Shown piece by piece: positions 33,846 to 60,979 of a stretch of DNA of 64,000 bases. The notes beneath the pieces are model-generated. The model was given only the letters and a program-made list of their open reading frames with translations. It did no database searches and was not told where the DNA came from. Source of the stretch: an uncultured Chitinophaga sp. (GTDB lineage Bacteria > Bacteroidota > Bacteroidia > Chitinophagales > Chitinophagaceae). The translations under genes were made by a program, and so were the position numbers. Location: contig CAYUCU010000003.1 of NCBI GenBank assembly GCA_964443345.1, positions 5,413 through 69,412 on the forward strand, read 5' to 3'. Position 1 is the stretch's first letter, and every line of letters starts with the position of its first letter.

Positions 33846-34619
33846 TCAATCAATAAGAATTTTTTTGAACTCGGTGGAGTCTCCGTTGAATACATTGAAA
33901 TCCACTTTGGAAACAATTCCATTCACCCTTCCTTCATCACTGTGCTGCCAGAAGGTCCAGCTTCTGCCAATACGGGGTTGGTCGGGCCGGTAATAATGGG
34001 CGGCCCACAACGGGTACTTGTCAAACTCATCCCCCAGGTTACGGTTATAAAAATCCACATTGGTATAAATGATCGGCTTTACCCCATAATGCACTTCCAC
34101 AAGCTGCAGCCATTTTCGCACTTCATTTTTCAATTGGGCCACAGAGGTGCCATTCAGTTGTTCCACATCTAATACAGGCGGCAGGTCGCAGCTTTCCAGC
34201 TTTACGTTGTCAATAAAATTTTCCGCCTGCTGTTTTCCATCTTTGGAAGCAATAAAAAAATGATACGCCCCGCGGGGAAGCCCGGCTTCTTTTGCTCTTT
34301 TCCAGTTTCGTTTGAATTGCGGATCGGAGGAAGACGTTCCTTGTGTGGCTTTTATAAAAGCGAATCCCATCTGGATCTGCTGCACTTTCATTTTCTTCAC
34401 CTCGTCCCAGGCGATAACCGATTGGTATTTTGAAACATCAATGCCATGTATATCATACCCACCGGGAATGGATATGCCAAACTCTTCGTAGCGGGTATAT
34501 TTTGCTTTACGGTAAGTAAGCCATTGAAAGATGATCAGGGCGGCCACGCAGAACAACGCTGTGCCAAACACTATAAAGACGAATCGCTGAATACGCTTTT
34601 TTTGCTTGCGTGAAAACAT
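33846..34619 (-). CDS. GH25 lysozyme/muramidase, membrane anchored
   Basis: GIDVSKYQ, IKATQG, GAYHFF, PPVLDVE, WQHS, VDFNVF. N-terminal TM. Confidence 0.92.
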   Translation of the reverse strand: MFSRKQKKRIQRFVFIVFGTALFCVAALIIFQWLTYRKAKYTRYEEFGISIPGGYDIHGIDVSKYQSVIAWDEVKKMKVQQIQMGFAFIKATQGTSSSDPQFKRNWKRAKEAGLPRGAYHFFIASKDGKQQAENFIDNVKLESCDLPPVLDVEQLNGTSVAQLKNEVRKWLQLVEVHYGVKPIIYTNVDFYNRNLGDEFDKYPLWAAHYYRPDQPRIGRSWTFWQHSDEGRVNGIVSKVDFNVFNGDSTEFKKILID

Positions 34620-34734
34620 TGGGTGGCGGGTGGTTTTGCTTTGTTACTGATCCCTTTACACAGCGGTGAAGATAAAGTGCAGGCTGAAAACAGGATGTGA
34701 AAAGTTGGGGCTTTTTCTGCTAAAGGCAGGGCGG

Positions 34735-35055
34735 ACCTGTTAAAAGGATAGGCACCGCCTAATAAACAGTTAGGCGTGCCTATTAAAAGGTTAGGTACCC
34801 CCTAATAGATTATTAGGCGGACCTATTAAAAGGTTAGGTACTACCTAATAGATTATTAGGTCGACCTATTAAAACGCTAGGTACTACCTAATAGATTATT
34901 AGGTCGACCTATTAAAAGGTTAGGTACCACCTAATAGATTATTAGGTCGACCTATTAACAGGTTAGGTACTACCTAATAGATTATTAGGTCAACCTATTA
35001 AAACGCTAGGTACCACCTAATAAATAATTAGGTCGGCCTATTAAAATGATAGGTC
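34735..35055. repeat. Non-coding tandem array, ~7.5 x 43 bp, each unit made of two ACCTA-N9-TAGGT palindromes
   Basis: Units start at 34735, 34778, 34821, 34864, 34907, 34950, 34993 and 35036 (partial). Consensus ACCTATTAAAAGGTTAGGTACTACCTAATAGATTATTAGGTCG. Confidence 0.95.
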
Positions 35056-35329
35056 AGCCCATTGATAATGATACATTTAGTCTTTTTGGGCCAGGAAAAA
35101 GTGGCGGATAACCTATTGACGGAGAGACCAAGTCGGGACAGTTGCGAAAATTGATAGGGGTCGATAAGGCGGTTCAAAGAAAGGAAGGCGACAGTCATAA
35201 AAGGTGCCTTTAAAAAAGAATCGCAGGTATTAATGGCAAAGATCTGTCATCATTTACTGCTCTTTTTCTTCAAAAGGGCCGGTTTTTCTATCACCTGTTA
35301 GTGGTATTGCTTTGCGTTTGCCCTGCGGC

Positions 35330-35337
35330 TACCTTTG
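35330..35337 (+). promoter_or_regulatory. Bacteroidota -7 promoter element
   Basis: TACCTTTG 80 nt upstream of ATG 35418. Confidence 0.55.
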
Positions 35338-35417
35338 CCCTCTGCATTTATTAATGAGATACCAGTTGTAGTAAACAAAGGCAGTTCTCAATTAACCATT
35401 AAACCAAACCACATTTT

Positions 35418-37856
35418 ATGTTACGATCTTTATCAACGGCCTTTGCCGCAGTTCTCCTCTGCACCGGGGCCTTTTCACAAAACAAAAGCGAAGTAAAAAA
35501 TTATCCCCGCAATCACACTGCAGGTGAAGTAGCCCTGCTGCAACAATGGACCGAAAGCGATGGTACCCGTTCGTTTACCGCTTACACCATTGATGTGCCG
35601 GTGGCAGGTACTTATTCCATTGCAGTGGTGTCCAACCTGCAAAGTGGGGCGTCGCTTCCTGTTATTGTTGATGACCGGTCTTCTTCATTCCGCATCAATG
35701 CGGCTGAAAGCGGCTGGCAAAAAACAACTGTTTCAGCTTTGACAAAAAATGATGCTGCCGGTTTGTATCTTACTGCAGGCCGTCATACCATTAAACTAAG
35801 CTTAGCCGGTAATATACCGCCACTGGTGGACCAGGTCAGTTTCAGTCGCAGTGGTTCTCATGCTGAATTAGATGCTAACTGGCAGCAGTTTTCCTCACGC
35901 CTGGCACAATGGAAGCAGGAGCAACCTGTTTCCATCGCTCCCGCAGCCGATAAGTACCAGCCTTCATTTGATAAAGTGCTGAGCAATCCTGAAGGCAATT
36001 ACGACCATGCCATTGATACCGGCTTTACCTATTCCACTTTTCAATGGGTGTACTTAACAGCCGGCACTACTTATACCTTCGCCACCAACAACTCTACCAA
36101 AGACCCGGTACTGCATCTTTTTGATCCCGCTAATATAGATACACGTTCCTGGTATGATGATGATTATAACGGTACCTGGGAAAGTAACCTGGTAGTGAAC
36201 ATTACCGTTAGCGGCAGCTATGCCCTGTTGTTACGTCCTTATTATGCTTCGCAAAGCGGTACTACCAATGTTACACAAAACGGCGTACCAATTATTAGCA
36301 ATACACCAATCGGCGGGCAACGGTTTGCCACAACACTCAGAACAGGTAACCTTAATTATTTTACTGCCAAACTCAGCGGCGTAAATCCCGATACACGCAT
36401 TTTTACATTATTGACTTCAGGCAGCTCCGTTACCGGGTATAATGATGATTATTATAATGCCAGCGGTGGCACCTGGAACTGGTCATTGTGCTCCCGCATC
36501 AAAAAGAACTATGCCGCTGCCAGCAGCTATGTATATGTGTGTGCTTACAATACTTCTAAAACAGGCAATTGTGATGTGTATATGGGAAATATAGCGGCCA
36601 CGCTGCCAACCTCTGGTGAAGCAGGCAACTTCCCCTTGCTGAAAGGCGAAGATGCGATACAGACTGCACCCAGCACTGGTACTTATAACTGTATTGCCTG
36701 GAGCGGTGGTATCACCACTTCATGGGAATGGCCCCCAAGCAATTGGTCTACCTGGTATGTGGCAGGAAATCCGTTGGCTGGTTTTGATAAATATTATTCC
36801 AATACCCCGGCCCGTTTCCCCGGTGCCTGGAATTATACCCGCACAGGAGCTACTGTTTCCAATTCAGTGGTGGACCTGTGGAAGACAGCCAGTGATTATA
36901 CACATGCTTCGGTAACAAAGCCCGGCAATAATAACCCGCATGGGTATGATTGGGAAAGCAAGCCCGGCGGTTTCGACCGGACCCTGCATCCCCGCAATGC
37001 ACTGCAGAATGCCAACTGGTACGGATCGGTATCTAATTATTATAAACCTACCGGTACGTATGCACGCCTGCCCATTGCTGCAGGTACATTTGAAACAGAT
37101 ATGGATGCGGTGAACGCCGGTGTGGCTGTTATTGACAGAGCAAGCCTAACTAATGGTGCACAGGAGAAACTACGTTCCATGTTATCAAGAACAGATGCTT
37201 CATTTATAAATAAGTTCAACGAGCTGTATGCTGCCTGGGATAAAACGAAAGCAAAGAATGCTTCGCTTAGCGATCCTTCGATGTATTGCAGGAATACCGA
37301 GTTTGAAAACCTGGCGGCATTCAGCCAAAAAAATACTACTGCTGCCATGCTGTTGTCGTTTGACAAATTTGTGAACAATGGTGATCATTATATTGGGGAA
37401 CTGGTATTGTTGCTCACAACAAATCAGTATGGCCGTTTATTGACCGAGGTAAGAACAGAACGGTTAGAAAATCCAAATGATGCACAGGGCCGGTATAAGA
37501 TTCATGGTGATCATGATAACGGAGTGCTGTATGTAGAAAAGATACTGAAGCAGCTGGATGAAAAAGCGTTCATAAGCCCGGTGGAAGAAGCTATTATCGT
37601 AACCATTTCACCCAACCCGGTGAAAGATCAGTTTACCGTACAGGTAAATCTGAAAACAGCAGGTCGTGTTAGTGTACAGGCCGTATCTGCACAAAGCCGT
37701 GTTTCAAGAGAGTTGCGTTCAGAGATCGAACTGCCGGCAGGTACCCACCGCTTTAGCGCCAATGCAAAAAACTTTGGTTCATCAGCCGGAGATATTATTG
37801 CTGTACAGGTGAGAGTAAATGGAGTATTGCATACTGCAAAAGTGCTGGTGCTCTAA
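35418..37856 (+). CDS. T9SS-secreted multidomain protein: CBM-like, two PPC-like domains, DUF7689-like Cys-His domain, type A CTD
   Basis: Signal peptide, YTIDVPVAGTY...LTAGRHTIKL, DPVLHLFD...DDDYNG, YNCIAWSGG...THAS...WESKPG, C-terminal ISPNPVKD...TAKVLVL. Confidence 0.8.
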   Translation: MLRSLSTAFAAVLLCTGAFSQNKSEVKNYPRNHTAGEVALLQQWTESDGTRSFTAYTIDVPVAGTYSIAVVSNLQSGASLPVIVDDRSSSFRINAAESGWQKTTVSALTKNDAAGLYLTAGRHTIKLSLAGNIPPLVDQVSFSRSGSHAELDANWQQFSSRLAQWKQEQPVSIAPAADKYQPSFDKVLSNPEGNYDHAIDTGFTYSTFQWVYLTAGTTYTFATNNSTKDPVLHLFDPANIDTRSWYDDDYNGTWESNLVVNITVSGSYALLLRPYYASQSGTTNVTQNGVPIISNTPIGGQRFATTLRTGNLNYFTAKLSGVNPDTRIFTLLTSGSSVTGYNDDYYNASGGTWNWSLCSRIKKNYAAASSYVYVCAYNTSKTGNCDVYMGNIAATLPTSGEAGNFPLLKGEDAIQTAPSTGTYNCIAWSGGITTSWEWPPSNWSTWYVAGNPLAGFDKYYSNTPARFPGAWNYTRTGATVSNSVVDLWKTASDYTHASVTKPGNNNPHGYDWESKPGGFDRTLHPRNALQNANWYGSVSNYYKPTGTYARLPIAAGTFETDMDAVNAGVAVIDRASLTNGAQEKLRSMLSRTDASFINKFNELYAAWDKTKAKNASLSDPSMYCRNTEFENLAAFSQKNTTAAMLLSFDKFVNNGDHYIGELVLLLTTNQYGRLLTEVRTERLENPNDAQGRYKIHGDHDNGVLYVEKILKQLDEKAFISPVEEAIIVTISPNPVKDQFTVQVNLKTAGRVSVQAVSAQSRVSRELRSEIELPAGTHRFSANAKNFGSSAGDIIAVQVRVNGVLHTAKVLVL

Positions 37857-60777: not shown

Positions 60778-60891
60778 GGGAAGACCGTAAGACGGAAAGT
60801 CAGAAAGTATGTTTCCGATAATGGTAAGGTCTTACTGACTTCCCGTCTCCCCGACTTCCCGTCTTCCCTCTTCCCGTCTTACGGTCTTCCC
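60778..60891. repeat. Palindromic intergenic element (GGAAGAC family)
   Basis: Perfect 18-bp arms GGGAAGACCGTAAGACGG / CCGTCTTACGGTCTTCCC, with internal CTTCCCGT reiterations. Confidence 0.75.
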
Positions 60892-60979
60892 ATCTTCGTA
60901 AACAACAACCCGCTTTTGTTGTTATTTTTGTTTGTCCTCGGAAGCTTTAGCGAAGGAGGATCATTTAAAACAGTGAGCT

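Follow-up and report, generated by a model that had tools for sequence, protein, structure and literature searches.

The question raised by this locus is what a tandem row of some 15 short palindromes does between two divergent genes of an uncultured Chitinophaga, and whether it belongs to those genes at all. We addressed it in a stretch of 64,000 nucleotides of DNA (hereafter the window), an ordinary chromosomal context with Pol I, UvrD and housekeeping genes, from an organism that is present in biofilter and freshwater metagenomes. PF07484, the phage tail collar domain, was recognised in two proteins of the window (best E 1.4e-26), whose surroundings are otherwise housekeeping. The features discussed below are the following.

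34735..35054, no strand: the array, 15 sites ACCTA-N9-TAGGT, arranged as a 43-bp dimer in 7.5 copies with a 129-bp higher order in 2.5 copies (TRF and position scan)
34735..34818, no strand: decayed left-hand units (ACCTG..., GCCTA...TAGGC, CCCTA...TAGGC; scan, exact in the unitigs of four studies)
34821..35033, no strand: homogeneous core of 10 sites with perfect ACCTA/TAGGT arms (position scan), where unitigs break
within 34821..35033, no strand: the two site types of the core, A-type ACCTATTAAAAGGTTAGGT and B-type ACCTAATAGATTATTAGGT
within 34821..35033, no strand: junction palindromes TAGGTCGACCTA and TAGGTAC(C/T)ACCTA (also given as TAGGTACCACCTA)
35036..35073, no strand: decayed right-hand units GCCTATTAAAATGATAGGT, then TAGGTCAGCCCATTGATAATGA (TRF row 35029-35073, period 21; scan)
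33846..34619, minus strand: GH25 lysozyme gene, context outside the element (PF01183, 5.8e-49), start codon 115 bp from the array edge
35418..37856, plus strand: gene of an 812-aa DUF7689 protein (Pfam), context outside the element, start 363 bp from the array

The first-pass annotation of this DNA had described a 43-bp array of 7.5 units with about 15 phased palindromes, and both TRF and a direct position scan agree with this anatomy. The 15 sites, the first starting at 34735 and the last at 35036, follow one another alternately at 22 and 21 bp (mean about 21.5 bp), that is, with linkers of 3 and 2 nt, and TRF reports 34734-35054 as a period of 43 bp with 7.5 copies and 87% matches. Since the A- and B-type palindromes are identical at 14 of 19 positions, the basic unit measures about 21.5 bp and the 43-bp repeat is already a dimer. 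TRF also scores the same stretch as a period of 129 bp with 2.5 copies and, indeed, the AAAACGCT variant is present at both 34864 and 34993, a distance of exactly 129 bp. Units 3-7 carry perfect arms while the two left units and the last one are decayed (GCCTA, TAGGC, ACCTG), a decay that TRF traces on to 35073. The junctions between sites are palindromic as well, and the array is non-coding, with 12-16 stop codons in each frame and a longest open stretch of 22 codons. A single detail of the annotation has to be corrected at this level: the search pattern it proposed, CCTA-N11-TAGG, is mis-spaced and gives zero hits. With the right spacing, CCTA-N9-TAGG, the 64-kb window holds 14 matches against 0.72 expected from 100 shuffles, every one of them inside the array, and zero further copies of the unit outside it. 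Another small tandem repeat lies at 60829-60897 of the window, an 8-bp CTTCCCGT-like unit in 7.5 copies that is also scored with periods of 16 and 31.

Assembly is difficult where 43-bp units are nearly identical, and the same annotation had named an assembly artefact as one finding that would overturn its description. We checked the array against Logan unitigs (k=31) of runs from four studies, of which X1 and X2 are the same contig for contig and leave three independent contig sets. The left edge is exact in the unitigs of all four runs, and the right edge and internal variants in three of the four. The unitigs break inside the homogeneous core; they therefore confirm the existence of the array, whereas the copy number given here is the apparent one of the assembly. 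With the left edge reproduced by three independent contig sets, with the right edge and internal variants reproduced in three of the runs, and with homologous arrays in dozens of other assemblies, complete genomes included, the likelihood of an artefact is next to nil. Run X9, from a biofilter study, contains besides the exact sequence two short unitigs that show 3 differences over 34736-34786 of the window and are preceded by a different sequence (ATTAGGCTCG), which points to another allele, another strain or a further copy of the array.

The array lies between the 5' ends of the GH25 and DUF7689 genes, and had been presented as an element of this one divergent promoter region. The lysozyme assignment made at that time is borne out by the Pfam match, but that of a T9SS effector-like neighbor is not, given that no Por_Secre_tail or T9SS C-terminal domain was found in the 812-aa protein, for which Pfam gives only DUF7689 and NCBIfam nothing. 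In an orthologous locus with 88% identity in DUF7689, the downstream UvrD gene is kept, the upstream gene is different, the array is absent and only about 150 bp upstream of the ATG (about 35270-35417) are conserved with the window. Within these 150 bp, TACCTTTG at 35330-35337 fits the Bacteroidota -7 promoter motif TAnnTTTG, and a terminator-like hairpin is found just upstream of them at 35259-35279 on the plus strand. The array is likewise absent from a 90% GH25 orthologue and from a 75% one in a complete genome. On the other hand, an 81% GH25 orthologue (L074) carries an array of about 14 units at the corresponding place, about 130 bp upstream of the ATG, with the same unusual ACCTAA...TTAGGT arms as in the window, entirely different loops and its own four-unit higher order. 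Comparison of these orthologous loci indicates that the arrays are evolutionarily labile and internally homogenised, and that their half-sites are constrained while their loops are not. A-tract curvature as a conserved property was ruled out, the loops of the orthologous L074 array being non-A-tract.

These data bear on the proposal that the array is a local cis-regulatory contingency locus whose copy number tunes or switches the expression of GH25 and/or DUF7689. Such a role would agree with the short distances from the array to both start codons in a divergent region, with the equivalent place of the array in the 81% relative and with the left-edge variant in the unitigs of one study. Nevertheless, the 90% GH25 and 88% DUF7689 orthologues do without the array and, as described below, like arrays occur at 3' ends, between convergent genes and beside unrelated genes. 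To our knowledge, moreover, a 21-22-bp unit is unlike the known slipped-strand contingency tracts, and we regard this explanation as very unlikely.

The scope of the element was established by scanning one genome per prokaryotic species with a pattern of two adjacent sites (20 specified bases), for which we estimate about one chance hit. The scan returned 56 loci, nearly all in Bacteroidota (Chitinophagales, Saprospiraceae, Flavobacteriales, Cytophagales and Bacteroidales), with multiple loci in several genomes and five in one Chitinophagales MAG. Arrays of three or more sites number 33; their period is 21-22 bp and they contain up to 21 exactly matching sites, with L014 reaching 25 under a tolerant junction scan. 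A period of 21 or 22 bp is found in the arrays of every lineage, irrespective of whether the linker is of 2 or 3 nt and the loop of 9 or 10 nt. The consensus over the 33 arrays reads ACCTA-(C/T)-c-AAA-(A/T)-t-G-G-TAGGT plus a linker of 2-3 nt with CCTA/TAGG invariant, a conservation that is in part a matter of selection, as the pattern required ACCTA/TAGGT for the first 56 loci, and that loci selected by protein (see below) correct only partly. The signature of the family is thus a TAGG-N4/5-CCTA core (equivalent to CCTA-N9/10-TAGG) with a variable, mostly A/T-rich spacer of about 9 nt. The arrays are intergenic. Housekeeping genes of many kinds flank them, whether divergent, convergent or in tandem, and a test for Pfam enrichment among 95 array-flanking proteins brought up no family. 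By its head-to-tail period of 21/22 bp, its core and its intergenic non-coding location, the window array is, at the level of sequence, one member of a non-coding array family that extends across Bacteroidota, and is not private to the GH25/DUF7689 region; the framing as a part of one divergent promoter is accordingly not supported.

Several observations complete this survey. From one lineage to another, the bases on either side of the core change in a symmetric manner (TAGGTCGACCTA, TAGGCGCGCCTA, TAGGAGCTCCTA), as expected of a site for a symmetric dimer. At L013 (1835-2136), two sub-arrays with different flanking bases (GCGCGCCTA...TAGGCGCGC and GACCTA...TAGGTC) stand side by side, so the flanking base is no strict determinant of specificity within a genome. 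Short arrays of the family motif are present on five IMG/VR contigs classed as viral (L068-L072), which have no homologue of the linked protein described below. A second class of repeats, with a period of 11 bp and the sequence (T/G)GACCTAGGTnn, forms short tandem arrays in Bacteroidales/Paludibacteraceae MAGs of rumen and gut origin, with many loci in each genome (L002, L008, L026, L028, L033 and L034 in one Bacteroidales MAG; L010, L023, L037, L038 and L053; L015, L018 and L042; L030), and was set aside from the family with a 21-22-bp period.

An all-versus-all comparison of the flanking proteins yielded a sole recurrent neighbor, a protein of about 160 aa encoded beside 7 of the 33 arrays in four orders or families; the remaining arrays, about 26 of 33, are orphans that lack this gene. 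Its presence next to an array marks the archetype of the family and not each member. The linkage was examined independently of any DNA pattern at four loci picked with the protein as the sole criterion (Ferruginibacter albus, Flavobacterium granuli, Flavobacterium sp. WC2509 and a metagenome lineage), each of which carries a 21-22-bp array starting 64-100 bp past the stop codon. A protein-based scan of metagenomes gave 31 loci, among which 18 have a clear array (17 downstream and 1 upstream), 7 have short or decayed arrays, 4 leave less than 250 bp of contig and 2 have none. The order at linked loci is gene stop, canonical intrinsic terminator, 10-20 nt and array. No second conserved neighbor of the arrays or of the linked gene was found, only clade-specific synteny (LptD, RidA, DUFs). 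In the 64-kb window, tblastn and HMM searches detect no homologue of the protein in any frame, hence the window array is an orphan. One MAG illustrates both situations, its gene-linked array (L005) and two orphans (L049 and L051) having a common 43-bp dimer.

The protein falls into 411 representative clusters, almost all single-domain and of 155-175 aa. Its sequences are acidic, with a median pI of 5.0 and net charges between -1 and -9. Neither Pfam, PHROGs, NCBIfam nor PADLOC holds a family for it. AlphaFold predicts with confidence an all-alpha bundle (pLDDT 87) in which no HTH, RHH or winged-helix fold was seen, and no match was obtained by sequence search of the PDB or by Foldseek against PDB and BFVD. 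In F. albus (L078, 2650-3003), an element of about 30 bp (AAGAAAAATGTAGAwAGC..CTTAAATAA) occurs twice ahead of the linked gene, and in L079 and L081 similar ATGTAAGAAA motifs precede this gene by about 40-60 bp; the element may be a promoter or operator. In one Flavobacteriaceae lineage (L083 1-6483, also L084-L086 and L108), the gene of the 160-aa protein and a 21-bp array sit between cas12a and its CRISPR array, whose repeat (...AATTTCTACTATTGTAGAT) is present more than 40 times, with no cas4/1/2 genes in between; the phased array is distinct from the CRISPR array that it adjoins. L044 has a gene, terminator and array matching those of this lineage. The array unit CCTAC-loop-GTAGG and the stem of the Cas12a repeat, TCTAC-loop-GTAGA, are alike in hairpin shape and not in sequence. 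Mimicry of the Cas12a repeat, suggested by the YCTAC...GTAGR hairpin shape of the two, was rejected as a general explanation, as the sequences differ and the adjacency is confined to one lineage.

Whether the palindromes act as duplex DNA or as folded nucleic acid can be examined from the way in which they vary. Over 167 distinct units, about 60 departures from ACCTA/TAGGT are one-sided against about 8 that are compensatory. At position 6, where the left arm has Y and the right arm has R, the two bases are combined without regard to each other (CG 33, TA 15, CA 28, TG 26), and the closing pair of the junction (R-TAGG-N4-CCTA-Y) also fits independence almost exactly (76/77 for GC, 24/24 for AT, 65/59 for GT and 31/31 for AC). 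Thus, neither of the two possible stems displays compensatory covariation. An A-type unit folds at -1.2 kcal/mol, which is no better than shuffles; single units are marginal and stems are of 4-6 bp. Furthermore, a search of the window array against Rfam returned no family at the gathering threshold, permissive hits being spurious miRNA-precursor models. In four wastewater metatranscriptomes, the linked gene has a depth of 4-9 and is therefore expressed, while the array behind the terminator has a depth of 0 in three and 2.3 in one. These depths, together with the intrinsic terminator that separates the linked gene from the array, argue that the array is no part of the mRNA.

A different picture is drawn by the polarity of the arrays. 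In 17 of 19 linked arrays the strand with T-rich loops is the sense strand of the upstream gene, a bias that among co-directional orphans stands at about 9 to 3-4. In 24 of 31 arrays the T-rich strand has the lower energy when folded as RNA, and on this strand the junction reads R-TAGG-NNNN-CCTA-Y followed by T4. These three features, and the low coverage of the array in one of the four metatranscriptomes, are what one would expect from an element acting at the RNA level or coupled to transcription, either a multi-hairpin RNA, as had also been proposed, or a series of weak terminators or insulators (hairpin plus U-run) opposing read-through from the upstream gene. Against it stand the one-sided changes, the short and marginal stems, the canonical terminator already in place ahead of the linked arrays, the lack of array contigs in three of the four RNA runs and of a match in Rfam; as for the window copy, it lies between two divergent 5' ends and has nothing to terminate. 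On balance, we deem this kind of element quite unlikely, and the multi-hairpin RNA is disfavored. The lack of covariation, the symmetric changes of the flanking base and the fixed period of two helix turns favor instead recognition of the duplex by a symmetric protein over RNA or single-stranded DNA structure.

The reading that we tentatively prefer, with slightly less than an even chance, is that the array is a helically phased row of duplex binding sites for a candidate factor acting in trans. The roughly 15 pairs of inverted half-sites (core CCTA/TAGG) recur every 21-22 bp, that is, two turns of the helix, which would place all sites on one face of the DNA. Many copies of one sequence-specific and probably dimeric protein could then dock side by side on the array and build a continuous nucleoprotein structure. 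The archetype would be an array just behind the terminator of the gene of the 160-aa protein, with orphan arrays of like unit scattered between genes elsewhere in the genome, the window array being such an orphan. Action in trans is suggested by the occurrence of several arrays per genome and by the dimer common to L005, L049 and L051. Unequal recombination or slippage would homogenise the units and shift their number, and whole arrays are gained or lost between close relatives with the half-sites retained. Among the roles listed in the first-pass annotation (iteron-, centromere- or silencer-like), the general notion of a cooperative protein-binding array remains the best fit to the strict period, the conserved half-sites and free loops, the one-sided departures and the little or no RNA, while membership in iterons or centromeres is not retained (see below). 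What the data show directly is the anatomy of the array, its family, the link to the gene, the missing covariation of the arms, the weak RNA signal and the polymorphism in presence or absence; protein binding, its cooperativity and the role of the complex are what we infer.

Some of our observations sit less easily with a row of binding sites. The only candidate binder by association, the 160-aa protein, is an uncertain one, being acidic, with a predicted fold that finds no match and in which no DNA-binding fold is recognisable. The spacings between half-site centres, 8-9 bp and 13 bp, both differ from the usual 10-11 bp for HTH dimers. The loop polarity and the folding of the T-rich strand would not be predicted for a purely symmetric duplex site. 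Finally, the conservation of the core could equally stem from an enzyme that copies the arrays.

This last point leads to the main rival, which we consider unlikely though more probable than the other alternatives: a selfish or neutral dispersed repeat akin to REP/BIME, whose unit is the site of a transposase or recombinase or a recombination substrate, seeded between genes and expanded by slippage and unequal crossing-over, the core being kept by the copying machinery with no cellular function. REP/BIME units are short, palindromic and extragenic, and REPs carry a GTAG tag (PMC3733652), which many related arrays recall by reading GTAGG...CCTAC. The arrays further resemble the REP clusters and BIMEs of Proteobacteria, which are associated with RAYT transposases, in being strictly extragenic, between unrelated genes only, in having identical units at several loci of a genome, in forming clusters of about a dozen units and in varying among strains, as seen in their presence or absence among close relatives at the GH25 locus. 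Strand-specific transposition of single-stranded DNA would give the observed polarity relative to genes, and a decayed terminal partial unit of 12 nt is common to two MAG-366 loci. Yet this partial unit is the only shared end found around arrays of one genome, in which no TIRs, target-site duplications or conserved leader or tail were detected. The units are direct and head-to-tail at a fixed 21-22 bp, with constant loop polarity along an array, rather than alternating in inverted orientation as in BIMEs, and in place of a high-copy dispersal, units on their own or in pairs are absent from the rest of the 64-kb window and scarce in the 8-kb loci. Hairpin covariation is lacking, and the window units (GTTAGGT/ATTAGGT) read TTAG, with arms TTAGG/ATAGG, and not the GTAG (or CGTC) of REPs. 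No RAYT was seen and no transposase recurs near the arrays in the all-versus-all comparison of flanks, none being among the top 25 families listed. A selfish repeat also leaves unexplained that the arrays, in another phylum, are tightly linked to a small gene other than a transposase and follow its terminator at a fixed distance.

Returning to the row of binding sites, an extension of it that is possible but doubtful is that the arrays and the acidic helical protein of about 160 aa make up a two-component chromosomal system of Bacteroidota, in which the dedicated protein, alone or with a host partner, would assemble on scattered phased TAGG/CCTA arrays, with roles such as the organisation or insulation of DNA or conflict with mobile elements. 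No published description of the arrays or of the protein was found in the full-text literature, with exact-sequence terms included, and a candidate preprint concerns other systems; such an absence is no proof of novelty. The array family is apparently undescribed, although its kind, a dispersed intergenic palindromic repeat or phased binding-site array, is not, and there is a substantial chance that array and protein form a new two-component system. Few phyla of the gut and the environment have been studied as much as Bacteroidota, yet hardly anything has been charted of their dispersed non-coding repeats in comparison with the REP/BIME, ERIC and Correia elements of Proteobacteria. The signature TAGG-N4/5-CCTA every 21-22 bp and the unannotated partner family of about 400 clusters can now be searched, deleted and used in pull-downs in culturable strains. 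If a protein does coat the arrays, this would reveal a new chromosomal nucleoprotein structure; should they prove selfish, they would be mobile minisatellites of a new class. On the practical side, the arrays cause breaks at many loci when Bacteroidota MAGs are assembled from short reads.

It remains to place the arrays among the other known systems. Iterons of theta-replicating plasmids, e.g. the 7 x 22 bp of the R6K gamma ori and those of P1, F and pSC101, are tandem direct repeats of about two helical turns located by a dedicated gene, with incA/incC as titration arrays. The arrays share with them direct repeats of a period of about two turns, within the 17-22 bp that defines iterons, a dedicated adjacent gene and extra orphan arrays elsewhere. 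Tandem-repeat partition centromeres of plasmids, such as F sopC (12 x 43 bp), R1 parC and pSK41 parC, are comparable in their phased sites that each contain an inverted repeat and in the continuous nucleoprotein filament that we propose here, and the 43-bp dimer of the window coincides with the sopC unit. A small gene next to repeats of 21-22 bp, as at the archetypal loci, is generally what a rep gene with its iterons or a centromere with its binding protein looks like, and an origin or centromere left by an integrated replicon would explain it. This origin is nonetheless largely refuted and in our view extremely unlikely: the window and the family are chromosomal, with several dispersed arrays per chromosome rather than on plasmids, the units have a palindromic core unlike iterons, and no Rep, ParA, ParM or TubZ gene, nor any other partition NTPase or RHH/HTH centromere-binding protein, is found beside the arrays. 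The neighbor is, instead of a winged-helix Rep, an acidic protein predicted to be all-alpha that has no hit in 72,556 plasmids (PLSDB), 50,697 phage genomes and IMG/VR, and the array region itself has no blastn match in plasmid and phage collections.

The window array differs from a CRISPR array in that its units abut with linkers of 2-3 nt and, as had been noted, no unique spacers, and no cas family is among the best 25 of the 75 families listed for the window. The closest parallel within the phylum is BrickBuilt of Porphyromonas gingivalis, a minisatellite-MITE of intergenic tandem repeats of about 23 nt at some 19 copies per genome, the non-palindromic unit of which (AGAYCATARTATCCTCTCRTRTG) is framed by leader and tail segments with IS-like TIRs (PMC4596501). 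While the arrays described here are unrelated to it in sequence, palindromic and devoid of TIRs, target-site duplication, leader and tail, both are intergenic tandem-repeat elements of Bacteroidota that have a similar unit length and break assemblies.
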